A DNA stretch of 64,000 nucleotides, taken from IMG/VR virus record IMGVR_UViG_3300047202_000291. One strand, 5' to 3'. The notes under the pieces are model-generated. The model searched no databases, was not told the origin of the DNA, and saw nothing but the letters and a program-made list of their open reading frames with translations. Shown piece by piece: positions 1 through 30,795 of the stretch (position 1 is its first letter; each line of letters opens with the position of its first letter). This stretch comes from a virus (lineage: Duplodnaviria; Heunggongvirae; Uroviricota; Caudoviricetes). A program made the translations under genes and the position numbers.

Positions 1-3000
1 ATTAGTCCAGCCGGTATTTCTCAGGTCTTTGCTCTAGGTGATGAAGTAGCATATTCAGCACAAGTTCCAATAATATCAAATATTACTGAATATGGTGAAA
101 CCGCAAATAGCATAAATATAAGTTGGTTTGTTGATCAGCCAGTAGATAATAGAATGCAGATTGCTAAGAATCCTTGGATACTTGATGCTGCTTGGGCTAG
201 CAGAATTATTAATTATACTGAAACTTTTGAGCACATATATGCTGACACAGATACTTCGGTTCGCCTTTATGTTAGGCCCCCGTATTATGGTGGGATAGTT
301 AGTGTTGTTTGCTCAAATCCAGCATATAGCGCAAATTATTTAATTAATGATAGCGCGAGTCCTGTCGAAATTACTTTCGGGGATGTTAATGAGACAGATT
401 ACTATGATTGGACTATAACTTATATTTTGAATGATACTATACAATGGAATACGGGTAGACCGGCTTTCATGGTAGATAATTTAGATGCGGACACAACTTA
501 TTATTATAGGCTTTGGGCATACGGCCTCGGTGGGCTCAATACAACTCAGGACGGAAGCTTCACTTTAGGAACTCCTCCGGCGACACCTTTATCTGAGATT
601 CACAACTATACTGAGAATAGGCCCGATGAGCAGGTTATAGTCTGTGGTGAACTTACAGATATGAATAGCGAATCTTCAATAGATTGTTCAATTCAATATT
701 GGAACGAGGAATCAACTACCTTCGGGGAAACAACCGCAGATACCATGACCTCAACAGGAACATTCTGTAAGACAATTGATGTTAACTATGGTCACACTTA
801 TGGCTATAGAGCTAAATGTGCTGCCTCAACCACCGGTTATAGTGACGCATACTTTAACGAATTCATGGCAATTCAACCATTCTTTGCCGGCAATCCGATA
901 GAGGATGATCAGGATTATGAAGATAGGCAATATTGTCCTGCGGGTCCTGGAATAGAGCCTTGTTATGAACAGAGAGGATACCGCGAAGGTTCATTGCAGG
1001 AGGAAGATTGGATATGGATAGAGACAAATATTACTGATCAAGGTACTTTAACAGTTCATTGGTGGGATGATGGTTGGTCAACCTATGATATGACAAATGA
1101 CACCGATTCAGATATGAGATATTTGGAATTAACAGGTCTAGATTCTGATTGGCAGACATTTTATATAACGGGATCAGCAGATAATTTGGTTTTGAATTGG
1201 ACAAAGCCATCTATGATTCATTTGGTAAATCAGAATAGGACCGACGAATCAAAATATGTTGCATTCGGAGGAACTCCAACTGCCATTGATTATCAATTAC
1301 TCTATATGGATTCTCAAATATATGATATAAGCGCATATAGGTGGTGCATTGCAGCCGGTGGTTCTCTGTATGATTGCATGGGAGTTCAGTATTGGGGTGG
1401 TGGCTACGAAACTGGGATTCCTCCGTCTTTAAGCGGAACTTCTTATGATAGAGGTCAGCTTTTCAGAGGCGGTGTGATTAATGGTGAAATGTACGACACC
1501 GGGATTCTTACAGAAATTAGGGACACCGGCAAATCTCTTGGGGATGATGTTTATAATCAAAGGTACTGCTTCGCATTCACAGATTACTGGTGGGATTATT
1601 CAATTGTTCCAAGTAACAATATAACTAATTATTATTATCATTATTGGACTGAGAATGAGAAATATTCAGATTATCTTGGTCATAATCAAGATAGGTTATT
1701 TGATTATATATATTTGATGAGATTTGAATATGATGAGTTTAGCATGACGAGGGACTGGAAAGCCATAACTGGAACCACCCAATATGATGAAAATGTGGTT
1801 AAGACTGCGAGTGGTTCTAATTGGGGTACCTCAGCAGATCAAAGTTTGCTTGTTGGCTATGTGGGTGGATTCAATGTAGCAACCGATAAGGATCAGATTT
1901 ACAACTTTGGATTCTATACTGATGGAAGGTGGACAAATCAACAGTTCGGTAAGTATCAGCAGGCCTTCGTTATATTCAACCTGCCGGATAATGCGACTCT
2001 TCAGAGCATGGACAGCGATTCTGATAATTTGACAGATTATGATGAGTTGTATATATATTATACTAACCCGAAGAGCAATGACACTGATGAAGATGGTAGA
2101 GTGGATACATATGAGATTTTATATGATTATGACCCTAATTTGCCAGATTCTTGTGGCGTTGATGATAATGCTTGTGATTATTGTCAGAAATGTGTTTTAG
2201 GAACGTGTACTTTTGAGGCCGCCGATGAGGATGTGAAAGATGATTGTGACTTATATTTTGATGATTGTACAAATGCTTATACCTTGTTAGGGTCTAGTGG
2301 ATTCTGTGATGGTGCCGGAGATTGCGCTTACCATGATTTCGAAGCCAATGTTTCTATAGGAAAGATTTGTGTTGCTGGGCAGAATGTTAGTCCTTCGAAC
2401 AGCGTAAATTGCGGAATTTGGGCTGATTGTGTTGCCGGAACTACAAATACTAGCAGTACATATTTTGTTGGTTATGCCGGCGATGGTACAGCTACTTGTG
2501 ATGATACTGGTTGGGTTTATAGGGGTTGGTCTAATTTCACTATGCCTGCAGGACCAAGAGAATCCTTTGCATCAGCAGTCTTCGATGGAAAAATGTGGCT
2601 TTTTGGTGGAATTGATGCTAATCCGTCATGGAACGCTTATAATGATGTTTGGTCTTCTACTGATGGGATTAATTGGACTCTCGTAACTGATAATGCTAGT
2701 TGGTCTAAGAGAGATAATATGGTGGCAATTGTTTATGACAATAAGATGTGGATCATGGGCGGTTACACTATAACCGGTGTTGAAAATGATGTTTGGTATT
2801 CGACAGATGGTGCTAATTGGATTCTTGCGACCGAACATGCAAATTGGTCTGATAGATATGCTTTTGGGTTAGTTGTATTTAATGGTGCAATGTGGCTCAT
2901 AAGCGGAACTCCAACTGGCTATGCGTGGGATACTGATATTTGGAATTCTACCGATGGAATAAGTTGGAATCACGTAACTGATCAAGCTTGGCCTTATTAT

Positions 3001-4140
3001 GGAAGAGAGTATTTTGAAGTTGTTGTATTTAATAATACAATGTGGTTAATCGGAGGTCATCGGTTAGCTGGTAGTAATTGGTATTCTACGGATGGGGTTT
3101 CTTGGGCCTCTTATGATCCGCCAACAAATTATTGGGGTCAGGGAACTGTGGTGCTTGATGATAAAATATGGGTCACTGGAGGATATGTGTGGGGTGTGGG
3201 AACAAGATCAGATATGTGGTATTCTTCAAATGGATTAAATTGGATTGAATCTGAGTCTAATGCTCCTTGGGGCCCGAGAGTTTATCATGAATCATTAGCA
3301 TATGATGATAAAATATGGCTTTTTGGAGGATCGCCAGACGGTGGGGATTGGGCATATGATGACCTTTGGACTAATGAGCCACCGACATTAGATGTTACTT
3401 CAGGGTATGTCATAAATGTTACCGAGCATGCCGAAGTGTGTCAGGAGATCCTTATTACGGTAAATGTTACTGGGGTTACAACAGATCAGTCAAGCGTAAG
3501 TCCACTAGAAGGATCAACAGTTGATGTATTTTTTAATGTATTTTTAGAGAAGGTTCTTGGGGGGATAACTTCTTACAATATATCCGCAGTGTCTCCTTCA
3601 GGTGCAAGATACGCAGCAACCTGTAACTATACTTTATTTAACATGTCTTGTGTAGTGCCGATGCAGTATTATTATGAGCCGGGATTATGTGATGTGGATG
3701 TATTTGTTAGCGATAATAATGGAAGCGGTGCCCTTTATAAGGATGATTTATTTGATTATGGGTCACTCTTGGCGATGAGAAAAGATAGAGATTATATGGC
3801 TTTGACCGGATCATTTATTGGATTGAATAATGTGTCATTTGATATGCCTATTGATATGACTAATTCTGGGAATGAGAATATTACGGCCATAAAGCTGACG
3901 GCATATGACATTCCTGGGGCCGTTGTTCCTTCAAAGAAGATATTGGCATCTTATTTTAGGGCGGGAATAAGCCTGTCTGATTCAGTGCAGCTTGAGAATA
4001 GTGTCGAGAAGAACATACCCTTTGCATTAACTCCAGGTCCAAATGCAACTGCTGCCTTCGGGATGTGGGTCTCAGTTCCAGCAGATGCTTATCCGCAGGC
4101 TTATGTTTCGGTTATTCCCTGGCAAATAATATTTGAATAA
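1..4140 (+). CDS. Large surface/adhesin-like protein, 5'-partial (frame open from nt 1). Repeated ~47-aa beta-propeller (Kelch/BNR-like) units, Cys-rich module, DxDxDG Ca-binding-like motif, many N-x-S/T sequons
   Basis: No stop in frame from nt 1. About 9 repeats of W.STDG.NW...W..R...VF...MW..GG (nt ~2560-3400). Cys-rich CGVDDNACDYCQKC...; NPKSNDTDEDGRVD. Confidence 0.8.
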   Translation: MSPAGISQVFALGDEVAYSAQVPIISNITEYGETANSINISWFVDQPVDNRMQIAKNPWILDAAWASRIINYTETFEHIYADTDTSVRLYVRPPYYGGIVSVVCSNPAYSANYLINDSASPVEITFGDVNETDYYDWTITYILNDTIQWNTGRPAFMVDNLDADTTYYYRLWAYGLGGLNTTQDGSFTLGTPPATPLSEIHNYTENRPDEQVIVCGELTDMNSESSIDCSIQYWNEESTTFGETTADTMTSTGTFCKTIDVNYGHTYGYRAKCAASTTGYSDAYFNEFMAIQPFFAGNPIEDDQDYEDRQYCPAGPGIEPCYEQRGYREGSLQEEDWIWIETNITDQGTLTVHWWDDGWSTYDMTNDTDSDMRYLELTGLDSDWQTFYITGSADNLVLNWTKPSMIHLVNQNRTDESKYVAFGGTPTAIDYQLLYMDSQIYDISAYRWCIAAGGSLYDCMGVQYWGGGYETGIPPSLSGTSYDRGQLFRGGVINGEMYDTGILTEIRDTGKSLGDDVYNQRYCFAFTDYWWDYSIVPSNNITNYYYHYWTENEKYSDYLGHNQDRLFDYIYLMRFEYDEFSMTRDWKAITGTTQYDENVVKTASGSNWGTSADQSLLVGYVGGFNVATDKDQIYNFGFYTDGRWTNQQFGKYQQAFVIFNLPDNATLQSMDSDSDNLTDYDELYIYYTNPKSNDTDEDGRVDTYEILYDYDPNLPDSCGVDDNACDYCQKCVLGTCTFEAADEDVKDDCDLYFDDCTNAYTLLGSSGFCDGAGDCAYHDFEANVSIGKICVAGQNVSPSNSVNCGIWADCVAGTTNTSSTYFVGYAGDGTATCDDTGWVYRGWSNFTMPAGPRESFASAVFDGKMWLFGGIDANPSWNAYNDVWSSTDGINWTLVTDNASWSKRDNMVAIVYDNKMWIMGGYTITGVENDVWYSTDGANWILATEHANWSDRYAFGLVVFNGAMWLISGTPTGYAWDTDIWNSTDGISWNHVTDQAWPYYGREYFEVVVFNNTMWLIGGHRLAGSNWYSTDGVSWASYDPPTNYWGQGTVVLDDKIWVTGGYVWGVGTRSDMWYSSNGLNWIESESNAPWGPRVYHESLAYDDKIWLFGGSPDGGDWAYDDLWTNEPPTLDVTSGYVINVTEHAEVCQEILITVNVTGVTTDQSSVSPLEGSTVDVFFNVFLEKVLGGITSYNISAVSPSGARYAATCNYTLFNMSCVVPMQYYYEPGLCDVDVFVSDNNGSGALYKDDLFDYGSLLAMRKDRDYMALTGSFIGLNNVSFDMPIDMTNSGNENITAIKLTAYDIPGAVVPSKKILASYFRAGISLSDSVQLENSVEKNIPFALTPGPNATAAFGMWVSVPADAYPQAYVSVIPWQIIFE

Positions 4141-4339: not shown

Positions 4340-5254
4340 ATGAGGGGTTGGCATTATGAATCTCATAGGCATAGTCTTGCAGCCAAAGGCATAAAGACTT
4401 CTCAGCCAAAGCTTGCCAAGGTTCTCAGATCAGAAAATATCATCTTTGAGCCAAAATACGATGGCACGCGCATGATTCTTGAGAAGAAGGGTTCTGAGCT
4501 TACATTCATCAATAGGCGCGGTGTCGTAAAGAATGATACTTATCCTGAATTATATAATATTAATAAGAGCATCAAGGGCGATGTAATTCTCGATGGTGAA
4601 GTTGTCGTTCTAGATAAGGAGCATCCCTTTGGCAATTTTGAAAAGCTCGCAATGAGAGATAGGCTAAAAGATAAAGAGGAAATAGAGAAAAGATCCAAAA
4701 CCCTTCCATTGACTTATGTTGTTTTTGATATTCTGGAAAAAGACAGGCAAAAGGTGGCAGATTTGCCATTGTCCGAGCGGAAGAAGATTCTTGATAATGT
4801 GATTGCACAAGGAAAGAACATCAGAGAAATAGAGTTCTCAAATAAATCAAGCGAGATGTTGTCTAAAGTTAAGCAGGCAAAAGGAGAAGGAATTGTGCAA
4901 AAAGACATCAATTCTAAATATGCACCAGGTTCCACGAGGTCCTGGGAAAAATACAAGCTTCTTAAGACAAATGATGTGGCAATAATTGGTATCACTTTAG
5001 GGACGGGAAGAAGAAAAGGTTATTTTGGTGCATTAAAGATTGCAGTTAATACTCCAAAAGGTTTAAAACCTGTTGGAAAAGTCGGCACCGGATTCTCAGA
5101 CGCTGATTTAAAGGAGATAAAAAGTAGATTGGATCAAGGTGAAAAACTCGTTGCTCGAATTCAATATAGAAAAATAGGTAGTGCTGATCATTATATTGAA
5201 CCTCGTTTTCAGGCAATTCGAACAGATATTTCTCAAAGTGATACGCACGAATGA
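4340..5254 (+). CDS. ATP-dependent DNA ligase (small, viral-type) carrying the shared N-terminal GW.YESYRHSLAAKGIKT module
   Basis: Motif I EPKYDGTRM (KxDGxR), motif III VILDGEVVV, motifs V/VI GIVQKD...WEKYKLLK. SD AGGGTGAG upstream. Confidence 0.85.
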   Translation: MRGWHYESHRHSLAAKGIKTSQPKLAKVLRSENIIFEPKYDGTRMILEKKGSELTFINRRGVVKNDTYPELYNINKSIKGDVILDGEVVVLDKEHPFGNFEKLAMRDRLKDKEEIEKRSKTLPLTYVVFDILEKDRQKVADLPLSERKKILDNVIAQGKNIREIEFSNKSSEMLSKVKQAKGEGIVQKDINSKYAPGSTRSWEKYKLLKTNDVAIIGITLGTGRRKGYFGALKIAVNTPKGLKPVGKVGTGFSDADLKEIKSRLDQGEKLVARIQYRKIGSADHYIEPRFQAIRTDISQSDTHE

Positions 5255-5522: not shown

Positions 5523-6359
5523 ATGAAGGGTTGGTATTACGAATCTTATCGTCATAGTCTTGCAGCCAAAGGTATAAGGACAAATTGGGTGTTAATCAAT
5601 GAGAATCCGAGCTATAAGCGCATAAGAATCAATCGCGGATATAAAGATGTCGTCCAGGTAGATGCAAAGACTCTTAAAGAGCGTTTTGAGAAGGATAATA
5701 ATACTCCTCTTGCTTGGAAGCAATTAAGATTCGATCTTCTGAAAAACTGTGAGGAGTTTGATCAATATCCTGAGGTTGATATTCTTTCTTCTGGCAAAAT
5801 AGATTTTAATGATGGTCGTCATAGGGTTGCTGTGGCCGCAGCTCGTGGCGAGACAATCGAAATAGCAGTTAAAAATAAAGATAAATTTCTTGAGGCTTTC
5901 AGTAAGCATTCTTTTGCTGCAAAGCAGGATCCTTATGAATTTCAGGATAGCAATCAGGAGAAGATAGTTCATGCTGATTGGTGGGGTGAGCAACAATATG
6001 ATGCGAATCATAGGCCTCTTCCTTTGCTCTGGAAAGATAATGAGCTCAGATTTGTTCTTGAGGGCTCTGGCGATATTTTCAGGGAGTTCTCAATACATAA
6101 AGCGGATAACTGGTGGTTTGCTCAGAATTATATTGATGAGAAGGCAGCCCGCATTAAGAAATATCTGACTGATCCTTCTTTGGCGAATCATTCCGTCGGA
6201 GAGATAAATAAAGCAAAGCTTGCAGAGATTAGAAGGCTTTGGACAATTCAGCCTTACGAAACAGAGTTGCAGAAGAAAGCTATTGATCTGAACCTTGCGA
6301 TAATTGATAAGGACAATGAGAAGGCACTTTCAATCTTAAAGGAGGTTTCGAAAGTATGA
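5523..6359 (+). CDS. ParB-like nuclease domain protein with the shared N-terminal module
   Basis: ParB/Srx motif FNDGRHRVAVAAARGE. N-terminus MKGWYYESYRHSLAAKGIRT. Confidence 0.7.
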   Translation: MKGWYYESYRHSLAAKGIRTNWVLINENPSYKRIRINRGYKDVVQVDAKTLKERFEKDNNTPLAWKQLRFDLLKNCEEFDQYPEVDILSSGKIDFNDGRHRVAVAAARGETIEIAVKNKDKFLEAFSKHSFAAKQDPYEFQDSNQEKIVHADWWGEQQYDANHRPLPLLWKDNELRFVLEGSGDIFREFSIHKADNWWFAQNYIDEKAARIKKYLTDPSLANHSVGEINKAKLAEIRRLWTIQPYETELQKKAIDLNLAIIDKDNEKALSILKEVSKV

Positions 6360-7105
6360 ATCGTTACAAACCCCTTGGTTGGCGTTATGAATCATACAGG
6401 CATTCCTTAGCAGCCAAAGGCATCAAAACAAGGTATAAGGTGCCTCCGGCATGGAGAAATGTTAAGTATTATAAGGATAAGCCGTATGTTGTAACTGGTG
6501 TTGATAAGAAAGGTAGGGTTCAATATATTTATCCTGAATCTTTTTCTTCTGCAAGCAGTGAAAAGAAGTTTAATAGGATTGAGCGCTTTGAGAAGCAAGC
6601 ACCGGCTATAATCGATTCTGTAATGAAGGATGTTAAAAAAGGAGATAATCCCGAGGCCGAAGTTGTTTATACGATGTACAAAACTGGATTTAGGCCAGGT
6701 TCGGAGAATGATACAATGGCGGAGAAGAAGGCGTTTGGTGCATCAACTTTGCTTAAGGATCACGTTTCTGTGCGAAAAGATGATGTTAAGTTTAAATTCA
6801 TTGCTAAGAAAGGCGTTCCTGTTGAAAAAGACGTTAAGGATAAGCTTCTTGCAGATATAATTAAGAGGCGCATGCAAAGTAGACGGCTCTTTGATACCTC
6901 TGAAGGTCGTTTAAGGGCTTATTTTGATAAAAAGACCCAAGGTAGGTTCCAATTAAAGGACCTGAGGACTTTGAAGGCCTATGAGGTCGCTAAGGAGGCT
7001 GGTGGCGATAAGAAGGAGATAGCTGAACGCGTTTCAGAGGAGCTCAGCAATACGCCCGCAGTCGCGATAAGTTCTTATGTTCATCCGAGGCTGATTAATG
7101 AATAG
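6356..7105 (+). CDS. Type IB topoisomerase-like catalytic-domain protein (compact) with the shared N-terminal module
   Basis: YKTGFRPGSENDTMAEKKAFGASTLLKDHVSVRKDDVKFKFIAKKGV resembles the poxvirus-type TopoIB core (GccsLr.eHv...v.F.F.GK). C-terminal LRTLKAY is a possible catalytic Tyr. N-terminus GWRYESYRHSLAAKGIKT. Confidence 0.5.
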   Translation: MNRYKPLGWRYESYRHSLAAKGIKTRYKVPPAWRNVKYYKDKPYVVTGVDKKGRVQYIYPESFSSASSEKKFNRIERFEKQAPAIIDSVMKDVKKGDNPEAEVVYTMYKTGFRPGSENDTMAEKKAFGASTLLKDHVSVRKDDVKFKFIAKKGVPVEKDVKDKLLADIIKRRMQSRRLFDTSEGRLRAYFDKKTQGRFQLKDLRTLKAYEVAKEAGGDKKEIAERVSEELSNTPAVAISSYVHPRLINE

Positions 7106-7760
7106 ATTAAAGCCAATCGGTTGGAAATACGAAGGATATAGGCATAGTTTAGCAGCTCGAGGTATCAAAACTTCTTTTAAATTAAAATATGGAAAAGACA
7201 TTCCCGCGCAGCTTCATACTGGTTCAAAGGAATTTAAGGATATTAGCGAAGTGAAACAGCACCTCCCTTTTAAGCCAAGGGGCGGTTTTTGGACTTCGAG
7301 CTATAGGCATGATGCAGAGCCTGGATCTAAAAGTGATTGGCTTGATTGGGCATCCTCAGAAATGCCTGGGAAAGCCAGTAGTGAACACATGATTCTTAGG
7401 CCAATTCCAAATGCAAAGATATTTGAGATCGATGATGAAGAAGATATGAGATATTTGTTTGATAAATATGGAACACTTGTGAGCGGTATGCCCGATATTG
7501 ACTGGCAGAAACTCTCGCAGGATTATGATGGATTGCGTGTGACTGAGAATGCTGCACGCAAGTTTCATTTGAATTACGTTTCTATGGAGGATTTGATTAA
7601 AAAGAAGGGATTGAAAAGTCCTTTTGGAAAAGATCATTTTTTATCAGGAGTTACCTTAAATGCTTGGGACTCTGAAAGTACAATTTGGTTTAGGGATGTT
7701 TTCAAGAAGAAAACTCCCGTTGATATGAAAATAAATGCTGAAATGGATACCGGATATTGA
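7098..7760 (+). CDS. Hypothetical protein with the shared N-terminal module
   Basis: N-terminus MNRLKPIGWKYEGYRHSLAARGIKT; no other recognisable domain. Confidence 0.65.
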   Translation: MNRLKPIGWKYEGYRHSLAARGIKTSFKLKYGKDIPAQLHTGSKEFKDISEVKQHLPFKPRGGFWTSSYRHDAEPGSKSDWLDWASSEMPGKASSEHMILRPIPNAKIFEIDDEEDMRYLFDKYGTLVSGMPDIDWQKLSQDYDGLRVTENAARKFHLNYVSMEDLIKKKGLKSPFGKDHFLSGVTLNAWDSESTIWFRDVFKKKTPVDMKINAEMDTGY

Positions 7761-9748: not shown

Positions 9749-10042
9749 ATGATGAAATATTATGATAGATGGACATTCATGCGCATTCTTCTTCATCTAT
9801 GGTCCACTGTTAACGGCGTCACTTTATCAGATTTGCGTAGGAAGATTGGTCTTAGGGTGACGATTGAGCACATTGATTGGCTTGAGAAGCACAAGTATGT
9901 GCGCAGAGTTCAGGATATTGATGATTTTCGAAAGCTCAATATTTATTTAACAGCGAAAGCAAAGCCAGTGTGCAAGGCATTAATGGATTTGAAATATTCC
10001 TTGCCAGAGGATTTGGGAAATGAATTTTTTAGGTCGCATTAA
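9749..10042 (+). CDS. Winged-helix DNA-binding protein (MarR/ArsR-like)
   Basis: GVTLSDLRRKIGL...HIDWLEKHKYVRR helix-turn-helix/wing pattern. SD TAGGAGG. Confidence 0.55.
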   Translation: MMKYYDRWTFMRILLHLWSTVNGVTLSDLRRKIGLRVTIEHIDWLEKHKYVRRVQDIDDFRKLNIYLTAKAKPVCKALMDLKYSLPEDLGNEFFRSH

Positions 10043-10547
10043 GCTTCTTTTTGAATATTTTAAAAAGAATGATATGACTCTACGCGAGTTTGCAATAGGT
10101 ATGAACTCAGAGGTCAGCATCAAGAAGGACCTTCATATTCTTTTCTTCGATTATGATGAAGTCTCCCAAGAAGATGTCGAGGAATCTGTATTGGAATGCC
10201 AGGTTTTTTGGAATCTTTCAGACTGTTTTCTCTATAAGACTGGGAATGGGTTTCATGCATATTTTTATTATGATATAATGCCCTACACAAGAGTGCGCAT
10301 GATTATCGACTTTGCTAAATATGTTGATCCAATGTTTAAGTTCATTGGCAGATTTTATGATTATAAAACCATACGCCAGGCAGGAAAATACAAAGTGCAG
10401 GACATTTCTTTCTTGAAAATGATCCCGGGCAAGAGAACGCCCACTCTGGGAGAGGCTGAATTAGGTGATCTGAAGCGCAGGGAACGTGAATATTTATCCC
10501 AGATGCACGGCATTTTGAAGCCAGAAGTATTAAAAGACAAGAAATAA
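10020..10547 (+). CDS. Archaeo-eukaryotic primase (AEP)/primase-polymerase-like small protein
   Basis: AEP motif I ILFFDYDE (hhhDxD) and motif II TGNGFHAYF (sGxGxHxY). Lies directly upstream of the iteron-rich ORF-free region. Confidence 0.55.
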   Translation: MNFLGRIKLLFEYFKKNDMTLREFAIGMNSEVSIKKDLHILFFDYDEVSQEDVEESVLECQVFWNLSDCFLYKTGNGFHAYFYYDIMPYTRVRMIIDFAKYVDPMFKFIGRFYDYKTIRQAGKYKVQDISFLKMIPGKRTPTLGEAELGDLKRREREYLSQMHGILKPEVLKDKK

Positions 10548-10759
10548 TTACTACTAAAAAGTGGGCATAAACATAAGCATTAACATAAACATCGACGATA
10601 ATGCATATGTCTCGTGCTTATGCCAAGAACATATGCTTGTGCTGGCTTAATGCTATATTTCTTGTTTTTGGGTGTCTTGAATTAGTTGATATTTTACTAC
10701 TTTTTAGTTATAAAATATTAAATTAACTACTGATTAGGAATTAAGAAAGGTTTAATAAT

Positions 10760-11035
10760 AGGGGTTGTTTTCTACTCTTGAAATAAGAGAAGGGGGGTTT
10801 TTAGCTATGAGTATTAAAGGGGGTTTATTTTTGTATGAAAGGGGGTTTAATAGGGCGATAAATAAAGGGCTATTTCTTGCGGTAATAAGGGCGATTAATA
10901 AGGGCGATATAAGGCGATATAAAAAGGCGATTTCTTGCGACTATTTAGGGCGACTAATAAGGGCGACTATTAAAGGGTTTTCTAAAAGGTTTTCTCTTGC
11001 GATTAAAGGGGTTTCTCATTATCTAATTTTTTAAT
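10760..11035. repeat. Iteron array (GGGGGTTT, TAATAAGGGCGA[TC], TTCTTGCG families)
   Basis: Direct repeats visible in sequence. The 89-aa ORF the track calls here has a translation that simply mirrors the repeats. Confidence 0.6.
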
Positions 11036-11234
11036 CACCTTTCGGTAATAACCACCACCACCAAAAAGTTTATATACTGAATATGCTTTTCTCCTTCTCA
11101 TATCGCCTATAACGGCGGTTTTGGTATTTAACCAAAAATAAGGTTTTAACCAATTAAAAGGGCAAAACGCAACCTTTAAGGCGAAAGTTTTAAAGGTTTA
11201 GGTTAAAGTTTAGTATCCTACCTTTTTGAATACT

Positions 11235-11256
11235 GCTCACTTACAGGGCTATTCGC
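11235..11256 (+). promoter_or_regulatory. 22-nt element GCTCACTTACAGGGCTATTCGC; reverse complement of the element at 52926-52948
   Basis: Near-exact (single 1-nt indel) inverted copy 41.7 kb away; sits ~120 nt upstream of the gene starting at 11373. Confidence 0.5.
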
Positions 11257-11372
11257 ACAGGAAAAACTACCTTTTCTTTTAAGGACTACGAGCATTAACA
11301 TTAAGTTCTTTTGTTAATTAAAAGGGCTTAATTTCGTTCTCCATTATTAAAACCAAATCGGAGGCGATAATA

Positions 11373-16598: not shown

Positions 16599-17450
16599 AT
16601 GCCAGAACTAATGCCGATGCTCTTGCAGGAAGTGGAATTCTCAGAGGATGTCTTTGAGAAATATAAAGACTATGTTTGGCAAGAGAAGGAAAATGGCGTG
16701 CGGGTTATGGTTCATATAAAAGACGGGAAGATTTCTGCAGTAAGAAATAGGCGAAATAATCCTGTCTTGCATTTGTATCCAGAACTAACTGCACTTGATT
16801 TTGGGAAAATTAGTGCTATCTTGGACGGCGAACTTGTTGTCTTTAAAAATAACAAGAGTGTTTTCTATGGTGGTATTAATCAAAGGGATAAGCTTTATTC
16901 AAAGGATTCTGTGGAGAAATTTCCAGTTACATTTGTGGCTTTTGATATGATTTTTCTTAATAAGGAAATTCTATTAGGTAAGCCACATAATGAGAGGTAT
17001 GAACTTTTGAATACTGGATTTCTTTCATATACTGGAAAGCACTTTGTAATCTCTGATAATATTGCTGACCCAAAGAAATACTGGGCTGAGCACGTTATTC
17101 CGGAAGGAAGAGAAGGCTTGGTGCTTAAGGATCCCAAAAGCAAATATGAGCCAAGCCAAAGGTCTTGGTCTTGGCTGAAGCTTAAGAATTATAAGGTTGC
17201 TGAAGTGATTGTCGATAGCATTGATGTCAATGTTAAGGGCAATAAGATTACTGGAAAGGCAACTATTAATTCAGAAGTGTGTATTGTTGAGTGCCAATAC
17301 GGCGGCGTGTATAATATTCAGTTAGGCGATAAGCTTCCTGTCGAATATCTTGATATTGTCGGCGGGAAACTTATTCAGCCACATAAGCCAAGAAAATGGA
17401 AGCCAGAGGTGATTCAAAATGCCAGTGAAAATGAAAGTTCCAAAGATTGA
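16599..17450 (+). CDS. ATP-dependent DNA/RNA ligase (second copy; KxNG motif-I variant)
   Basis: Motif I KENGVR, motif III ILDGELVVF, motifs V/VI LVLKDPKSKY...WLKLK. Confidence 0.7.
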   Translation: MPELMPMLLQEVEFSEDVFEKYKDYVWQEKENGVRVMVHIKDGKISAVRNRRNNPVLHLYPELTALDFGKISAILDGELVVFKNNKSVFYGGINQRDKLYSKDSVEKFPVTFVAFDMIFLNKEILLGKPHNERYELLNTGFLSYTGKHFVISDNIADPKKYWAEHVIPEGREGLVLKDPKSKYEPSQRSWSWLKLKNYKVAEVIVDSIDVNVKGNKITGKATINSEVCIVECQYGGVYNIQLGDKLPVEYLDIVGGKLIQPHKPRKWKPEVIQNASENESSKD

Positions 17451-20166: not shown

Positions 20167-21042
20167 ATGTGTCATATAAATGTAATTTTTAAGAAAGATA
20201 AGGTGCCAGATAAGAAATTAAGTAGGTATATGAATGTAGTGAGTTATTATAGTTATTTGGCTAATGATGACGGCGAAGGGTATGTTGGTATCGACGCTGA
20301 GAAAGGAAAAGAGATTTCTTTTGGGAAGGGATTTAACAAGTTTTACTTTGTGAATCCATATTGGTTTCTTGCAACGCACCAAAGGATTGCTACTTCTGGA
20401 AAAGGGGTCGGTAACACCCATCCGCACGAAACAAAGGACTTTATTTTGATGCACAATGGGATCATAAGTTCTCTTGGTTCAGATGAGAAATCAGATTCAA
20501 AAGTCTTTGCCGATATGTTGCAGGAGGCTTTTGATAAGCAGGAAGAGGATAAGAAGGACTTGACTTTGGCAATAAGGGAAGTCACCAAGCAGGTAAATGG
20601 AACCTATTCTATTCTTATAGTTGAGAAGGCGACTATGCGTGTTCTTTACTTTAAGGAGCGCATTACAGATATGTATAAGATTGAGAACAAGGATTGGTTA
20701 GTCATGAGTACAGATGAGAAGAATGTCAAGTTTGCAAAATTCTGGTTAGGTATAAAAGGGAAAGTAAAATCAGTTGGGGAGCTTTATATTTATGATGTCT
20801 TGGATAATTTCAAAAAGATAAGGAAATTCGAGGAGCAGCCATATGTTTACGCAGAGTCGAAATCTTCCTCAATTTCAGGATATGGGCGAACTTATTATTA
20901 TGATGAGGATTATCATTATACTGGCAAAATCGTTAAGTCAGCATATGATGAGGAATGGATTAAGGACGATAGGGTAAGTGGCATAGAGAAATCTATTGAG
21001 GATGAGCGAAGGGAAAGATTTGAAAAGTATGACTTCTTTTAA
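20167..21042 (+). CDS. Class-II (Ntn) glutamine amidotransferase domain protein
   Basis: N-terminal MC (Cys nucleophile). RIATSGKGVGNTHPH...LMHNGIIS matches GlmS/PurF R.ATHG....N.HPH...HNGII. Confidence 0.7.
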   Translation: MCHINVIFKKDKVPDKKLSRYMNVVSYYSYLANDDGEGYVGIDAEKGKEISFGKGFNKFYFVNPYWFLATHQRIATSGKGVGNTHPHETKDFILMHNGIISSLGSDEKSDSKVFADMLQEAFDKQEEDKKDLTLAIREVTKQVNGTYSILIVEKATMRVLYFKERITDMYKIENKDWLVMSTDEKNVKFAKFWLGIKGKVKSVGELYIYDVLDNFKKIRKFEEQPYVYAESKSSSISGYGRTYYYDEDYHYTGKIVKSAYDEEWIKDDRVSGIEKSIEDERRERFEKYDFF

Positions 21043-21062
21043 GTAAGAGGTCGGGGTAGAAA

Positions 21063-21395
21063 ATGGAGCCGATAATCTTTGATGAGGGTGATGGTTATCG
21101 TACCAAGGCATACAGGCTTGAAGGTTCTTATGCAAAATTCTTTGGTAACGCTTTTGAATTTGTAGTTATCGAATGGTCACATCCAAATTATGGCTATTGG
21201 GCTGATGCTATGTTCTGGTGGCGTTCAATGCACACTGGTAAATGGCAGCCAGTGCCGATTGTTTCTTGGTGTGCTGGATACGATACACCAGAAGAATTTC
21301 TGGAGGATTTTCCTGTCTTTAAGAAACTCTTTAAGGGCATTGAGGAACGAGATTCGAGTGCAATAAAAAGGGCACTCGATAAGATAATTAAGTAA
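21063..21395 (+). CDS. Hypothetical protein within the amidoligase cluster
   Basis: ATG ORF on the + strand. Confidence 0.55.
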   Translation: MEPIIFDEGDGYRTKAYRLEGSYAKFFGNAFEFVVIEWSHPNYGYWADAMFWWRSMHTGKWQPVPIVSWCAGYDTPEEFLEDFPVFKKLFKGIEERDSSAIKRALDKIIK

Positions 21396-21406
21396 GAGGT
21401 TTTGTA

Positions 21407-22129
21407 ATGGATGTATCTGAAATGGCAATCGGGTATGAGCTTGAGGCTGGGTTAAAGGAGAATAGCAGCGTTAGGAATGTTGCGAGGCAACTTGGATTTC
21501 GTATCGGGGACGATGGTAGCGTATGTTGTGATGATATGGATACTTGGGAAGCTGAGCTTAATTCTCCCATTTATCAGGGGCAGAAAGGCAAAAAGCTGTT
21601 ATTTTTTGAGCTAAAGAAGCCAGATGTGGATAATAAGATTTTTTCAGACTTTGAGCAGTTGTCGCATTATGTGAAGGAGATAAATGATTCTATGGGTCTT
21701 CATATTCATGTTTCTTTCAAGAATAAAAAATATTATCAGTATTTATTCTCTTTCGCTTTCGTGAAATTCTTTCAGAAGGAATATATGAGGCATTTTAAGA
21801 AGCCTGTTGAACGAAATCGAGCAAATAATGAATATTGTGAGTTCTATGATGATGGGGATATTTATGAGTTCAAGGATATAAAGGATGAGGCTCTTGGTTC
21901 TCACGATAAATGTGATGCAAGAAATCACTCGGTTAATTTTAATTCTTATCCCGTTCATAAGACAATTGAGTTCAGGATTTTTCCAGCGACTAAGCGGTCG
22001 AAAGACTTTAAGAGATATGTTAATTTTGTGACTGGTTGTGTCACCAGTTTTATTTCTGAGGTCGAGAAGGAAAAAGTCTTTGAGCAGTTGATGGAACAAA
22101 GGATGAAGAAGATTAAAGTGAATATATAA
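21407..22129 (+). CDS. Amidoligase-like enzyme, paralog of the 19108 gene
   Basis: GYELEAG, GDDGSV, AELNSP, MGLHIHVS. Confidence 0.45.
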   Translation: MDVSEMAIGYELEAGLKENSSVRNVARQLGFRIGDDGSVCCDDMDTWEAELNSPIYQGQKGKKLLFFELKKPDVDNKIFSDFEQLSHYVKEINDSMGLHIHVSFKNKKYYQYLFSFAFVKFFQKEYMRHFKKPVERNRANNEYCEFYDDGDIYEFKDIKDEALGSHDKCDARNHSVNFNSYPVHKTIEFRIFPATKRSKDFKRYVNFVTGCVTSFISEVEKEKVFEQLMEQRMKKIKVNI

Positions 22130-26182: not shown

Positions 26183-26782
26183 ATGAAACCGAAACTCAGT
26201 ATAAAGTATTATCAGAACGCAGACAAGAATCATCAGGATTCTTTTTGGTATGATGGAGATATTGCATTGCTTAAATATAAGAATCGAGAAGTGCTTGTAG
26301 TCGCTGCAGGCGACATAAGGATTCACAATAAAAGAGGTGAGTTGGTCTATGATTGTAAGCCCCGCAATTCAGGATTTTCATTCAAGCTTGAGCAAGATAA
26401 AGATTTGTATAAGATAGGTAATAATTATGATGATGATTTCTATTGGGAAAATAACAACTGGTTCGAGCTCTTTTATAAGAACAAAGGAGATTCTAATTGG
26501 AATGATATTTTAGGTGATGTTTATTTTGACTATGGTGTTGTAATAAAAGCGGCGAAAGATGCAATTAAGGATGATAAATGGTGGAATGAAACCTGGAATA
26601 AAGCTACCTGTCTTGAGTGTAAGAAGGAGTTTATTCAGGAAAGGGACATTCAGCTTTGTGATGTTTGCATAAAGAAGTTCAATCTTGACAAGCTCTGGAA
26701 AGACCACGACAATAATAAAATTGATGCTCTTGATTTTAATGAGTCTAAAAAGATACGAGAAAAATATAGGGTGAAGAAATAA
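26183..26782 (+). CDS. Hypothetical protein with a C-terminal CxxC...CxxC motif
   Basis: ATG after GAGGT. Confidence 0.55.
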   Translation: MKPKLSIKYYQNADKNHQDSFWYDGDIALLKYKNREVLVVAAGDIRIHNKRGELVYDCKPRNSGFSFKLEQDKDLYKIGNNYDDDFYWENNNWFELFYKNKGDSNWNDILGDVYFDYGVVIKAAKDAIKDDKWWNETWNKATCLECKKEFIQERDIQLCDVCIKKFNLDKLWKDHDNNKIDALDFNESKKIREKYRVKK

Positions 26783-27933
26783 TGGAAGTAACACACGAAC
26801 AGTTGGCTATGCTTATTGAAGAGCACCGAAGGGCAGGGCTTCCTTTGTTTGTTGATGGTGCAACAGGCATCGGTAAATCTGAAGCTGGTATTAAGAGCAG
26901 TAAGATGTATGCTGATAGAATAAGTAGGCAATGGGTTGCTTGGGTTGATCTATCTAATTTAGATAGGCATAAGTTTCTTGATGACAAGGAGATTGTGAAG
27001 GTTCATTTATTCGTTGACATAAGGACGGCTCTTTTGGAACCGACTGACCTTCTTGGTTTGCCGTTTAAGGATGAGCGTGGTTATGTTGCTTGGTTGCCGA
27101 CTCTTCTTTTCAAGATTCTGAGTTTGCCTTCAGTTTCAGCTACTATATTCTTTGACGAATTCAATTTAGGCAGTTTGATGGTCATGAAATCCAGTTATCA
27201 GCTTATTCTTGATAAGGCCATAGGGGAAGTCAAGCTTGGTAAGGATGTTACAATTCTTGCAGCAGGAAACAGGATTGAGGATCGTGCTCACGTTACAGAG
27301 TCTCCAGCTCCATTAAACAATAGGTTTAGCCATTGCACTTTGCTTTGTCCAACTCCAGATGAGTGGATTATGTATAATCTTAAATCAGAATATCCTGAGC
27401 CAAGGCTCGTTTCTTTCATTAAGTTCAAGCCTAAATATATCTTTGACTTTAAGCCTAACCAAAAGGAGAAAGCATTTCCTACTCCGAGGGCGATTCAGCA
27501 GTTGGCTATGTTGCTTAAGGGAAAAGATGAGATGAATGAGCTCGATAATATGACCATGCTCGCCCAGGCGAAATGTGGTGATGCTTTCGGTGCAGAGTTT
27601 CAATCCTTCTTGCGTCTTACGAGGAAGGTTAATGTTGATGAGATTCTAGAGCATCCTGAAAAGGTGCATGAATTTGAAAAACAGCTTGACTTGAAATATT
27701 CATTAATCTCTGGGGTTGCCGTAAGGGTGAAGCAGGACTTCAATAAGATGGAACAGGCCCTCAAAGTTATAGCCGAGCTTGAAGATGAGTATGGTGTCTT
27801 TTTATTGAGAATGATTATTGATATTTGCGGTATGAAGGTGTTGTCCGTCCTTGAGCATAGTAAGACTTGGGAAACCAGGCTCTATGATAAGTTTAAGGAC
27901 ATATTAAGCACGAGATTTGCGCAGGTGAGTTAA
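26782..27933 (+). CDS. MoxR-family AAA+ ATPase
   Basis: Walker A DGATGIGKSE, Walker B IFFDEFN, sensor AAGNR, PLNNRF arginine-finger motif. Confidence 0.8.
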   Translation: MEVTHEQLAMLIEEHRRAGLPLFVDGATGIGKSEAGIKSSKMYADRISRQWVAWVDLSNLDRHKFLDDKEIVKVHLFVDIRTALLEPTDLLGLPFKDERGYVAWLPTLLFKILSLPSVSATIFFDEFNLGSLMVMKSSYQLILDKAIGEVKLGKDVTILAAGNRIEDRAHVTESPAPLNNRFSHCTLLCPTPDEWIMYNLKSEYPEPRLVSFIKFKPKYIFDFKPNQKEKAFPTPRAIQQLAMLLKGKDEMNELDNMTMLAQAKCGDAFGAEFQSFLRLTRKVNVDEILEHPEKVHEFEKQLDLKYSLISGVAVRVKQDFNKMEQALKVIAELEDEYGVFLLRMIIDICGMKVLSVLEHSKTWETRLYDKFKDILSTRFAQVS

Positions 27934-28174
27934 ATGGATAAAAATAAGCAGTATGCTTTGAAGATAAAACGGCGTTATGAAAACATATGTGAAAAGCTCG
28001 AGCAGTTGAATGCAGAAGCATTTGAGCTTGAGCAGGAGATGATGATGTGGTGAGATTAAAATGAAATTTTATAACTTTAAAGTTGAGGGAATAAGCGAAG
28101 AAATGGTGAAATTATTGATGAAACCATGTGATGAAGAAGGATTAGAATTTATAGTGGAGGAGGTGAAATAGAAA

Positions 28175-28906
28175 ATGTCGCACTTTGTAATGGGTGTAGT
28201 TGTGCCTGGAGATGAGCCATTGACTTTTGTTGATGATGCTCTTGCTCCTTTTGACGAGGCTCTTGTTGTAAAGCCTTATAAAAGGAAGTGTTGGTGTATT
28301 GGTAAGGAGGCAGAAGCGGCAATCGCAAAAGAAGGCACCGAAATATATGGATCTTGGGATGACCTGAGGACTAAGTTCCATGCACAGGAACAGATAAGGC
28401 AGGTAAAAAAAGAACAGGAAAAACTTTATAATAAGCCAAAAGAGGCCAAAAGATATTCTGAAATCGAGGCTTCAATTCAGAAGCAATGGGAAGCTTTCAT
28501 TAAGCCAAAATTAGATTTCGAAAAAAAGTGTTTGAGAGACCATCCTGGAAAAAATTCTCCGATGAAAAATTGTGAATCTTGCAAAGGGACAGGTAAGGAG
28601 ACCGTGACCTATAATCCGAAGTCAAAATGGGATTGGTATGAAGTCGGCGGTCGTTGGGATGGCTTCTTAAGTAAGACCAATGTGACGACTGTGAAGGAAC
28701 ACCTTAAGCAGTTGAAGAAAGCCTTTGACGCTAAAGTTTGTTTCGGCTATTTGGTTGATGGTGAATGGATTGAAAAAGGAGATATGGGTTACTGGGGTAT
28801 GGTTGCTAATGAAAAAAGTGAGCAGGTAATTCGTAAGAAATTCCTTTCATTGCTTGAGGGGTTAAATCCAGATGATAGGATAGTGGCAGTTGATTGTCAC
28901 ATATAG
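28175..28906 (+). CDS. Hypothetical protein
   Basis: SD GGAGGAGGTG upstream. Confidence 0.6.
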   Translation: MSHFVMGVVVPGDEPLTFVDDALAPFDEALVVKPYKRKCWCIGKEAEAAIAKEGTEIYGSWDDLRTKFHAQEQIRQVKKEQEKLYNKPKEAKRYSEIEASIQKQWEAFIKPKLDFEKKCLRDHPGKNSPMKNCESCKGTGKETVTYNPKSKWDWYEVGGRWDGFLSKTNVTTVKEHLKQLKKAFDAKVCFGYLVDGEWIEKGDMGYWGMVANEKSEQVIRKKFLSLLEGLNPDDRIVAVDCHI

Positions 28907-28916
28907 AGGTGAAGCT

Positions 28917-29123
28917 ATGCCTAAATTGTTGTTAGTTTTGGAAGCTCCGATAAAAATCTTTAAAGAACGAGATGTCTATCAGGTTTATAGGGTTTGGGCT
29001 AATGGCGTGCTTGCTCGATACGGATACGGTAAGACCAGAAAAGAAGCCATAGAAGTTGCTAAGAAGTTATTCATAGAATCGAAAAGAGGCAAAGCCGTCT
29101 CTTGTAAATATGTGGGTGATTGA
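28917..29123 (+). CDS. Hypothetical protein
   Basis: ATG at 28917. Confidence 0.5.
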   Translation: MPKLLLVLEAPIKIFKERDVYQVYRVWANGVLARYGYGKTRKEAIEVAKKLFIESKRGKAVSCKYVGD

Positions 29124-29276
29124 ATGATAAAGCCAAAGATAAACTATGCGAAGCTGATACTTGAGATACCGATATATTGGGGTATTGATGACGATGGCAA
29201 TATATTTGATGAAGAGGAGATGACAGAGGACTTTCAGCAGTTGCTGAAAAAGTTAAATCCAAAGAAGGTGAAATAG
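29124..29276 (+). CDS. Small acidic protein (50 aa)
   Basis: ATG ORF on the + strand. Confidence 0.35.
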   Translation: MIKPKINYAKLILEIPIYWGIDDDGNIFDEEEMTEDFQQLLKKLNPKKVK

Positions 29277-29419
29277 TGCCGACTTATGTGTATGTTGAGA
29301 AGAATGGAAATGCTTCATTAATACTTAGTGCAGATGCTGAAGAAGAAGCCGAAGCTTATCTTGGGGCTGTTGTTAAGCTTCCTGTTGAGTGGCGGCTCGA
29401 ATCAGTTGAGGTGGAATAG

Positions 29420-29650
29420 ATGTGCAATCGATACGAGACAAATCTTGAATCTTGGGAATCGAGTTTGAGCGATAGGCTCGATAAGCTTCTGGATGAAGAG
29501 ACTTTGGCTTTCATCAAGGCTTGTAAAGCTGACGGTGGAGAATCTGAGCCAGATGCTTTTGTTAATCCAGATATGGAGGCGGCTCAAAAAGATACTCTTG
29601 TAGCCATACAGCGATGGTTCGACGATAAAAAGGATGTCTTGCAAGTGTGA
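29420..29650 (+). CDS. Hypothetical protein
   Basis: ATG ORF on the + strand. Confidence 0.5.
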   Translation: MCNRYETNLESWESSLSDRLDKLLDEETLAFIKACKADGGESEPDAFVNPDMEAAQKDTLVAIQRWFDDKKDVLQV

Positions 29651-29659
29651 GGTGGAAAT

Positions 29660-29932
29660 ATGAACTTTATGAATATAAATGGCTTGGCAATTAAGTTCGA
29701 TGGAGATAGGCTTACTATTGAGGGCTTAAAGAAAGGCTCAGGTAAATCTATTAAGATTGATAAGGATGGGATAATCACTGGTGATGTCACTGGCGATGTT
29801 CAGGTCATAGGTAATAATGTTATTTTGAATATCGAAGGAGATGTGACTGGGAATATTGTCGGAGCGCGTGAAGTGAAGGTTCACGGTGACGTGACTGGGA
29901 ATATCTCTGCTGGAAAAGTTAGCAAATGGTGA
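29660..29932 (+). CDS. Bactofilin-like beta-helix repeat protein
   Basis: Repeated GDVTGDV / GDVTGNI / GDVTGNIS units. Confidence 0.55.
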   Translation: MNFMNINGLAIKFDGDRLTIEGLKKGSGKSIKIDKDGIITGDVTGDVQVIGNNVILNIEGDVTGNIVGAREVKVHGDVTGNISAGKVSKW

Positions 29933-29941
29933 GGCGAAATA

Positions 29942-30208
29942 ATGTGTAAAAGAAGTTCTTGGAAAGAAGTTCGCGGCGTATTAGTAAAGAAAGTAAAGGT
30001 TGCAGGATATGGAATGGTGTTGGTAAAACTTCCTTCCAGATATATGAGCCTCCACATACCTATGGGCGATGGAGAAGACAAAAAGATGTTCGATGAATTA
30101 GTATATTATAATCAAAGACTATATAATGGAAAAGATGAACAAACAATAAAAGGAAATGTTACAAAATTCATAAAAGAATACAAAGCAAGAAAGTGTGAGG
30201 TGGTATGA
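29942..30208 (+). CDS. Hypothetical protein
   Basis: ATG ORF on the + strand. Confidence 0.5.
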   Translation: MCKRSSWKEVRGVLVKKVKVAGYGMVLVKLPSRYMSLHIPMGDGEDKKMFDELVYYNQRLYNGKDEQTIKGNVTKFIKEYKARKCEVV

Positions 30209-30444
30209 TGAGGGAAATAAAATCAAAAGGCGAATTGGCCGTGTTCATTAACACGTCGAACTGCACTCAGCCTACAAGGCTGTTTTGTTGCGATAGGGTT
30301 GAGCTTGCAGGTAACCACTTGTTCTTTTATAGCAAGGAAACTTTATTGATGAAAGTCTGGTTAAAGGATGAGCTTGTTAGGATAGATGATGCTCTTGTGC
30401 GTGTTGGAATATTTGTAAATGATTTTGGTGAGAAGCTTGGATGA
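30205..30444 (+). CDS. Hypothetical protein
   Basis: ATGA overlap with the upstream gene. Confidence 0.5.
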   Translation: MMREIKSKGELAVFINTSNCTQPTRLFCCDRVELAGNHLFFYSKETLLMKVWLKDELVRIDDALVRVGIFVNDFGEKLG

Positions 30445-30610
30445 AGAAAAATATGTCGCAGTTTTGTGGCTGTTTGAGCAAGGAGAACTTAGTGATATAA
30501 AAAAGCATATGGGTAAAACTCCTTCAAGAGAAGATTTAATTACTCTTGTTGAGGATATACTTGAGCGGTATGGTAATATGGAATATTACGATTTAGAGGT
30601 GTTAGATTGA
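30419..30610 (+). CDS. Hypothetical protein
   Basis: ATG ORF on the + strand. Confidence 0.4.
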   Translation: MILVRSLDEEKYVAVLWLFEQGELSDIKKHMGKTPSREDLITLVEDILERYGNMEYYDLEVLD

Positions 30611-30795
30611 ATTGTCCAAAATGCAGAAAGAAGTTGTCTCGGGTTAATGTCATTTCCCAATGCTGGCAGAAGGCTTGGGTTGATGATAAAGGGAAGATAA
30701 CAGAGTATGGTTCTGTCGAGGAAATTACAGACACTCTTTTTATAGAGTGTCCAGATTGCTTTGCAAAACTTGATAAGGTGGTCAAGGAAGATTGA
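30607..30795 (+). CDS. Zinc-ribbon protein
   Basis: CPKC...CPDC; TTG start. Confidence 0.5.
   Translation: MNCPKCRKKLSRVNVISQCWQKAWVDDKGKITEYGSVEEITDTLFIECPDCFAKLDKVVKED

Follow-up and report, generated by a model that had tools for sequence, protein, structure and literature searches.

Type IB topoisomerases (TopIBs) of the "short" class, which carry an N-terminal domain of their own, are found in poxviruses, mimivirus, and bacteria (PMC4824112). The title of a reference cited in that paper describes the nicking-closing enzyme of vaccinia virus as encapsidated, and a phage-specific TopIB has been noted in jumbo phages (PMC7824862). The DNA analyzed here ("the window") is a 64,000-nucleotide stretch of the IMG/VR virus record IMGVR_UViG_3300047202_000291, assigned to the Caudoviricetes. 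At positions 6356..7105 of its plus strand, an open reading frame (ORF) with an ATG start encodes a TopIB-like protein of 249 residues (plus the stop codon), the first 25 of which form a peptide, referred to below as the tag, that it shares with neighboring proteins.

Judged by its sequence and predicted structure, this ORF is a genuine and complete minimal TopIB of the poxvirus/bacterial short class. Taken as a whole, the locus is very probably a minimal TopIB within a coupled block of four tagged genes in a large, uncultivated virus resembling tailed phages; the part of this explanation in which the tag serves as an addressing signal is offered far more tentatively. Small or phage-encoded TopIBs are not new, and equally small viral versions are already present in the databases. 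The enzyme itself is thus unsurprising and adds little when taken alone, apart from anchoring the functional reading of the tagged cluster. The interest lies in the previously undescribed tag and in the uncharted virus lineage that carries it.

Catalytic core and N-terminal remnant

The sole Pfam match of the ORF is the topoisomerase I catalytic core (PF01028; E=1.5e-12), which reaches 47.8 bits (gathering score, 23.7) and spans residues 65 to 214. The peptide GASTLLKDHVSVRKDDVKFKFIAKKGV (residues 128 to 154), which an earlier note made from the letters of the DNA had likened to the TopIB core, falls within this match, and the compact ORF is present exactly as described there. A phmmer search of the Protein Data Bank (PDB) returns the TopIB of Deinococcus radiodurans (2f4q) as the best match (E=7.7e-15), followed by the mimivirus and variola enzymes. 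In a protein database search, the protein has about 50 compact homologs of 243 to 276 aa (43 to 96% identity), after which come longer forms of 305 to 417 aa. The family profile and the alignment used for AlphaFold were built on 79 TopIB homologs, and all conservation counts given below refer to these 79. Against PDB TopIBs, this profile gives E values ranging from 1.8e-61 to 3e-11, including 1.8e-61 for D. radiodurans, 6.2e-26 for variola, and 1.9e-23 for mimivirus.

Structure prediction leads to the same assignment. The AlphaFold model has a predicted local distance difference test (pLDDT) score of 89.8 and a predicted template modeling (pTM) score of 0.84. In a Foldseek search of the PDB with this model, places 1 to 22 are all occupied by TopIBs (E from 1e-12 to 4e-4). 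The variola TopIB-DNA complexes superpose on it with template modeling (TM) scores of 0.72 to 0.75, root-mean-square deviations (rmsd) of 2.8 to 3.4 Å, and E values of 1e-12 to 6e-11. The model recovers the C-shaped TopIB clamp, formed by an N-terminal domain and a catalytic domain; the latter covers residues 61 to 249 (6536..7102, plus strand) and ends 8 residues past the catalytic Tyr. The TopIB likeness proposed in the earlier note is therefore borne out by Pfam, by profile matches in the PDB, and by Foldseek.

The R-K-R-(H/N)-Y catalytic pentad, whose conservation had been suggested as a check, is kept as R113-K151-R204-N232-Y241 in 78 to 79 of the 79 homologs. Arg113 (codon at 6692..6694; this and the following codons are all on the plus strand) corresponds to R130 of vaccinia and R137 of D. 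radiodurans, Lys151 (6806..6808) to K167 of variola and K174 of D. radiodurans, and Arg204 (6965..6967) to R223 and R239; each of these residues is found in 79/79 homologs. The fourth residue of the pentad, Asn232 (7049..7051), corresponds to His265 of the poxvirus enzymes and to N280 of D. radiodurans. It is Asn in 78/79 homologs, which is the bacterial-type state, and the LgNTPav sequence around it aligns with vGHTPsi in the comparison of the family profile with the PDB. Tyr241 (7076..7078), which lies in the context SSYVHP, corresponds to Y274 of variola and Y289 of D. radiodurans and is likewise Tyr in 78/79 homologs. The LRTLKAY motif (residues 203 to 209), in which the catalytic Tyr had previously been placed, holds the catalytic Arg204 instead, within the aligned KDLRT stretch. 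Tyr209 of this motif was rejected as a candidate nucleophile, as it occurs in only 5/79 homologs and it is Y241 that aligns with the known catalytic Tyr.

With this active site and this predicted fold, the enzyme is apparently active. By the mechanism established for the family, it would clamp duplex DNA, and Tyr241, assisted by Arg113, Lys151, Arg204, and Asn232, would attack one strand to form a 3'-phosphotyrosyl intermediate. Rotation would then relax supercoils, and the strand would be resealed without ATP or metal.

The protein is some 90 residues shorter than its longer homologs (median, 338 aa), has no tail beyond the Tyr, and leaves the Pfam N-domain family PF21338 unmatched, features that could also be expected of a decayed, noncatalytic remnant kept as a DNA-binding scaffold. 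Such a remnant is nevertheless highly improbable, because the five catalytic residues are intact across the compact homologs despite their sequence divergence, which points to purifying selection, because the fold is predicted with high confidence, and because equally small TopIBs exist in other viruses, namely, an Ostreococcus virus (248 aa) and a Bacteroides phage (254 aa). Still less credible is the alternative raised in the earlier note, a tyrosine-recombinase-fold enzyme (integrase, resolvase, or telomere resolvase) acting site specifically on genome ends or concatemer junctions: TopIBs and tyrosine recombinases reportedly have a common catalytic fold and chemistry, the gene is grouped with a ligase and a possible nuclease, and Foldseek lists XerH (E of about 2e-3) as well as the SSV1 integrase and the TelA protelomerase (E of 0.06 to 0.1), but XerH, the best of the recombinases, has a TM score of 0.44 and ranks below 22 TopIB entries with TM scores of up to 0.75, Pfam returns PF01028 and no recombinase family, the TopIB-specific PPAW...GRxQYxY signature is present, and the spacing and context of the pentad (KDLRT and NTPxxxxxSY) are those of TopIBs, so that the profile and Foldseek comparisons succeed with TopIBs and fail with tyrosine recombinases.

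The N-terminal domain, which had been described as replaced by the tag, is lost only in its proximal part. In bacterial TopIBs, the proximal piece of this domain consists of about 45 residues with the pattern MRLRRS..GFSY...L.RI..L.; it is missing here, and a comparison of segment lengths indicates that some 16 N-terminal residues are gone, with the tag in their place. The distal part of the domain remains. Residues 29 to 60 (6440..6535, plus strand), which read VPPAWRNVKYY...GVDKKGRVQYIY, form three strands of the poxvirus/bacterial type, located at residues 34 to 38, 46 to 49, and 55 to 58 of the AlphaFold model. Near-invariant positions in this region include P30, P31, W33, G53, R54, Q56, and Y59. 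The remnant matches the vaccinia N-terminal domain (1vcc) with a profile E value of 2e-4 and a Foldseek rmsd of 2.0 over 42 columns, and the GRxQYxY strand aligns with the vaccinia/variola strand that bears Q69, Y70, and Y72 (Q56, Y57, and Y59 here). The half of the domain that has been kept is the DNA-contacting one. The Pfam model of the N-terminal domain (virDNA-Topo-I_N; PF21338) does not match the ORF at E≤1.

The small size of the protein has several sources. The median segment before PPAW is 31 residues in the compact forms and 47 in the long ones; the corresponding values are 53 and 66 for the segment from the catalytic Lys to the second Arg, 29 and 41 for the segment from this Arg to the Asn, and 8 and 49 for the segment after the Tyr. 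The greatest single loss is therefore that of the C-terminal tail, some 41 residues long, and several loops are gone as well. The N termini of the compact family are of two types, either the tag or, in about half of the members, a strongly basic segment in which V[RK][KR]H[PS]R is repeated. The roughly 222 residues past the tag represent a natural minimal TopIB and help to define what the enzyme needs.

Among solved structures, the nearest relative by sequence is the D. radiodurans TopIB (2f4q/3m4a; 346 aa), which shares with the window protein a pentad with Asn in the fourth position, the PPAW...GRxQYxY motif of the N-terminal domain, and the NTPxxxxxSY motif around the Tyr. It differs in that the tag of the window protein replaces about 16 of the first 45 or so residues, a strand-strand-helix unit. 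In addition, the Lys-to-Arg and Arg-to-Asn segments of the window protein are shorter by 13 and 12 residues, respectively, and only 8 residues, rather than about 49, follow the Tyr. The poxvirus enzymes (vaccinia and variola, 314 aa; 2h7f/2h7g/3igc and 1vcc) give the best structural superposition (TM scores of 0.72 to 0.75 over about 250 columns), although they are only 19 to 21% identical to the window protein, have His instead of Asn in the fourth position of the pentad, and are 65 residues longer. The CCCTT target of the poxvirus and bacterial TopIBs shows neither enrichment nor depletion across the window, which contains 122 copies against an expected 136.5 ± 11.8.

Outside the compact family, the nearest viral relatives are the TopIBs of jumbo phages (Motura, PaBG, phiRSL1, and Lu11) and those fused to portal or MuF proteins in uncultivated phages of IMG/VR, which have the same core and are 31 to 40% identical to the window TopIB (E down to 5e-47). 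Their N-terminal domain is likewise shortened, with PF21338 matched in the distal part only. These are proteins of 300 to 1,500 aa, whereas the window TopIB is free-standing and begins with an unrelated tag. In the BFVD database, the top match of the model is a protein of Ostreococcus mediterraneus virus 2 annotated as topoisomerase I (A0A6H1QWI5; 248 aa), with a TM score of 0.74 by either length, followed by proteins of Achromobacter phage Motura and Pseudomonas phage PaBG. The Top1B of Bacteroides phage BS162P1 (254 aa, annotated as DNA topoisomerase 1B) is 30% identical over the C-terminal 146 aligned residues. It is more truncated at the N terminus, lacks the PPAW stretch, and has at most a GREYRF sequence resembling the last strand of the N-terminal domain. 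Unlike the window TopIB, neither the Ostreococcus virus protein nor the BS162P1 protein carries the tag.

The shared tag and the block of tagged genes

The tag, as delineated by a motif scan and an alignment of tags, occupies residues 1 to 25 of the TopIB (6356..6430, plus strand; MNRYKPLGWRYESYRHSLAAKGIKT). A ribosome-binding site, GGAGG (6341..6345, plus strand), lies 10 nucleotides (nt) upstream of the ATG, indicating that the tag is translated. The peptide is indeed shared: the motif GW.YE..RHSLAA[KR]GI[KR]T, whose consensus can also be written as GW..ES.RHSLAAKGI.T, opens four consecutive ORFs that start at 4340, 5523, 6356, and 7098, and a motif scan finds it nowhere else in the 64-kb window. 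Its codons vary synonymously (AGT or TCC for Ser, CTT or TTA for Leu), which indicates selection on the peptide rather than a repeat at the DNA level. On the TopIB model, the tag has pLDDT values below 50 at residues 1 to 13 and 18 to 20 and a short helix at residues 14 to 20; it is predicted to be flexible, with no packing against the body of the enzyme.

The TopIB is the third gene of this tightly coupled block, in which it follows a ligase and a protein with a ParB motif and precedes a protein of no recognized function. The first gene (4340..5254, plus strand) encodes a tagged ATP-dependent DNA ligase (PF01068, 4e-32; PF04679), in agreement with the ligase that the earlier note had placed beside the TopIB. 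The second (5523..6359, plus strand) encodes a tagged protein of two modules, with a 4-nt overlap between its stop codon and the start of the TopIB gene. The fourth (7098..7760, plus strand) encodes a tagged protein of 220 aa that matches phrog_8582 (function unknown) at 2.6e-4; here the overlap, between the TopIB stop and the start of this gene, is 8 nt. Given these overlaps, the genes starting at 5523, 6356, and 7098 are probably cotranslated. The role in the processing of genome ends or concatemers proposed in the earlier note is a possible one.

The two-module protein had previously been called a ParB nuclease. What supports this name is a DGRHR motif in module 1, of the ParB/Srx-like kind, and a weak hhalign match to tagged ParB-like proteins (P=0.001 over 32 columns); the ORF has no significant match in Pfam, PHROG, or the PDB, and its AlphaFold model, built from 5 sequences, has a pLDDT of 43 and is too poor for a structure search. 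The junction between its modules, at residues ~128 to 136 (nt ~5904 to 5930), contains a degenerate tag core, KHSFAAK, within FSKHSFAAKQDP. Both modules also occur in other combinations. In P0112, module 2 directly follows a full tag, and in P0179 it follows another module; module 1 is preceded by other modules in P0088 and P0090.

The window encodes a second ATP-dependent DNA ligase, an untagged paralog (16599..17450, plus strand; PF01068, 2.4e-31). The combination of a tagged and an untagged ligase, the latter 9 kb downstream, recurs in the unrelated contigs L089/L090, where the tagged set consists of two proteins of no recognized function, a PolX-thumb protein, a TopIB, and a ligase. The presence of such a pair in two lineages suggests that the two ligases have different destinations or roles.

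Beyond the window, a search of 1.84 billion proteins with a tag profile matches 3,207 representatives of metagenomic protein clusters at E≤1e-3, and the match nearly always begins at residue 1. Clusters of 5 to 7 consecutive tagged ORFs are found in unrelated contigs. Among the 113 tagged proteins that were scanned, few contain recognizable domains; those seen are DUF5661, ParB-like proteins, DNA methyltransferases, nucleases, GNAT acetyltransferases, and TopIB. Ligase and PolX are further functions recognized in tagged proteins. Modules are shuffled between tagged proteins, and degenerate cores of the tag (KHSFAAK, KKSMAGK) stay behind at the fusion junctions, where 7 such cores are observed against 0.07 expected from shuffled sequences.

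The tag has no match in Pfam and only two nonsignificant ones in the PDB (E of 0.25). A search of 50,697 GenBank phage genomes at E≤10 detects no tag, and none of 4 pattern matches in IMG/VR was confirmed. In GTDB genomes, it is rare, being confined to five loci in metagenome-assembled genomes (MAGs) with conflicting labels. Literature searches with the motif strings of the tag and with DUF5661 returned nothing.

Possible function of the tag

Distant phage relatives of the TopIB studied here are often joined to proteins of the phage head. In IMG/VR, 166 contigs encode TopIB relatives with 31 to 40% identity, and among 65 nonredundant ORFs, 23 are fused to a portal protein and 7 to MuF (~46% together). 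Fusions with ADP-ribosyltransferase, InPase, NUDIX, and Acb1 domains are also found. TopIB is a frequent C-terminal module of the portal and MuF fusions in loci L004 to L083 (for example, L024:583-2997, L025:5961-7472, and L013:2301-5303). Portal and MuF fusions have been interpreted as proteins that are packaged inside the head and then injected along with the DNA (PMC5512222), and MuF binds the portal (PMC5576092). The paper that defined this "polyvalent" class of proteins (PMC5512222) does not mention a TopIB module. TopIB nevertheless belongs to the polyvalent repertoire of injected proteins, and the frequency of its portal and MuF fusions, seemingly undiscussed so far, suggests that it commonly acts during the packaging or entry of phage DNA.

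The motif FxESxHPR..GxF precedes the TopIB module in 41/76 IMG/VR ORFs and recurs on adjoining ORFs. Its fuller form, [FW]xE[SE]x HPR x(2-9) G x [FW], is followed by a Gly-rich stretch and stands ahead of effector modules. It behaves like a module delimiter, with examples in L035 (5 copies in 3 adjacent ORFs), L031, and L021. The distribution of this junction motif mirrors that of the tag.

These fusions suggest, by analogy, that the tag might be an addressing, and possibly a processing, signal that directs several DNA-handling enzymes to a common destination, most probably the inside of the virion. This reading is tentative, but it is the one preferred here. The tagged enzymes would then enter the host together with the DNA and would relax, repair, or join the incoming genome; the tag would take the place of the covalent portal and MuF fusions that carry TopIB elsewhere. 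The processing of genome ends suggested in the earlier note would be compatible with this scheme. The model for such a signal is the capsid-targeting sequence (CTS) of phage T4, the only feature that the diverse internal proteins of T4 have in common (PMC3012670). Like the CTS, the tag is a short N-terminal peptide that is the sole feature common to unrelated proteins of one virus, as seen in four ORFs of the window and in 5 to 7 ORFs of related loci. It differs from the CTS in having no sequence similarity to it and in being found also at the C terminus, internally, and in tandem. Other observations in favor of a link to the virion are the pairing of tagged with untagged ligases, the location of tagged clusters just behind giant adhesin-like proteins, and the encapsidation of the vaccinia enzyme; the tag cores kept at module junctions are indirect evidence.

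A wider version of this proposal, held with slightly less assurance, is that the tag may be a widespread cargo-addressing and processing peptide of an uncharted lineage of large viruses, not represented among GenBank phages or in IMG/VR, which would load into the virion, and deliver together with the genome, a free-standing DNA-handling kit of minimal TopIB, ligase, PolX-like polymerase, ParB-like nucleases, and methyltransferases. Such a kit would be the unfused counterpart of the polyvalent proteins, with TopIB as an injected protein that recurs but has so far gone unremarked. The functions of the tagged proteins (ParB, methylase, and GNAT) are largely those of the known polyvalent repertoire. 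The tag is therefore a more valuable lead than the enzyme: should it prove to be an address for packaging or processing, the injected protein set of a whole unexplored virus lineage could be read directly from sequence, and the tag could be transferred to foreign proteins to load them into capsids.

Several points weigh against an addressing signal. The activity of the TopIB and the virion location of the tagged proteins are both inferred. The tag is also found at the C terminus, inside proteins, in tandem, and on small proteins with transmembrane segments, and such varied placement is as compatible with a general binding module as with a packaging signal. The genes identified beside the tagged cluster in the window include none for a head protein, a portal, or a protease, and the labels of the MAGs that contain tagged contigs are in conflict as to the host. 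Homology of the tag to FxESxHPR..GxF was considered and rejected, as hhalign finds no similarity between them (one aligned column); the link to the portal and MuF fusions is thus one of analogy and not of homology.

Of the other explanations, the one that fares best, although it is unlikely, is that the tag is a nucleic acid-binding arm that makes up for the lost proximal part of the N-terminal domain, the tagged proteins being simply DNA associated. The tag is basic and aromatic and is placed where the bacterial TopIBs have their first 45 or so residues, and in about half of the compact TopIBs, the strongly basic V[RK][KR]H[PS]R N terminus stands in its place. Those tagged proteins whose function can be recognized act on DNA, and tandem copies of the tag would be expected if it provided avidity. 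However, most of the 113 tagged proteins have no recognizable DNA-related function, some being small transmembrane or DUF5661 proteins; the model predicts a flexible tag that lies free of the TopIB body; and the tag matches no known DNA-binding motif or solved structure.

Somewhat less likely is a docking motif for a replication or repair hub (a clamp, SSB, or a compartment importer) that would recruit the enzymes to replicating DNA in the cell. In cellular systems, clamps are well known to recruit their clients through short terminal peptides; the tagged set, with its ligase, PolX-like polymerase, TopIB, and ParB-like proteins, would suit such a hub, as would the occurrence of the tag at either terminus. 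On the other hand, inspection by eye reveals no likeness of the tag to the PIP box or to known clamp or SSB motifs, the coexisting untagged ligase fits two destinations better than one replisome, and the degenerate tag cores at internal junctions are not something that docking would require.

Genome setting

The window looks like part of the genome of a large tailed virus. All its genes are on one strand, the GC skew is strong, there is an array of tRNA genes, and the encoded proteins include an SPFH protein and one that matches a PHROG "virion structural protein." Its matches among cultured phages, mostly jumbo phages, show less than 30% similarity, and no near-identical DNA is present in GenBank phages. 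The tagged cluster directly follows a gene at 154-4140, which encodes a 1,328-aa protein with Kelch repeats and Asp-rich (calcium-binding-repeat-like) and Cys-rich stretches, probably an adhesin or fiber. The same order, with a giant adhesin-like protein directly before the tagged cluster, is seen in four lineages, the window included. The giant proteins of the other three consist of 2,690 aa in L001 (with beta-helix/NosD), 2,648 aa in L089, and 1,627 aa in L093.

With regard to the host, tagged contigs with 2 to 7 consecutive tagged ORFs are found in MAGs labeled as Woesearchaeota (L084 and L086; DPANNHV_H2.bin.42), Methanosarcinales (L085/L093), and Ectothiorhodospiraceae (L087). These are probably viral contigs that were misbinned, and the labels hint that some members of the lineage may infect archaea. 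The tRNA sequences and promoter and terminator scans of the window were uninformative with respect to the host domain.

A noncoding gap at 10548-11372 (830 bp) contains iteron-like direct repeats, with about 8 copies of (T)AATAAGGGCGA and about 4 copies of AAAGGGGGTTT. The ORF immediately upstream (10020-10547) has a faint match to AEP-like primases (PF24387; E=0.08). Its location just downstream of this primase-like ORF makes the gap a candidate replication origin. The gap also contains 9 copies of CCCTT in 220 bp, against an average of ~0.5 per 250 bp; no such local cluster is found in related loci.

The region 59416-62979 is the array, which encodes 12 tRNAs (Leu, Cys, Met, Tyr, Asp, Glu, Pro, Gly, two Arg, Phe, and His). 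Their T-loops are atypical (GTGCAAT.CC), and an encoded CCA is absent from most of the genes. Across the last 6 kb of the window, the GC content rises from ~0.38 to 0.42 to 0.44. The segments 20167-22129 and 26782-32218 contain ORFs for GATase-like and Amidoligase_2 proteins and for a MoxR-like ATPase (phrog_1297) together with a DUF2201 metallopeptidase/VWA protein (phrog_1314). The nearest matches of the DUF2201 protein among cultured phages are mostly in jumbo phages.

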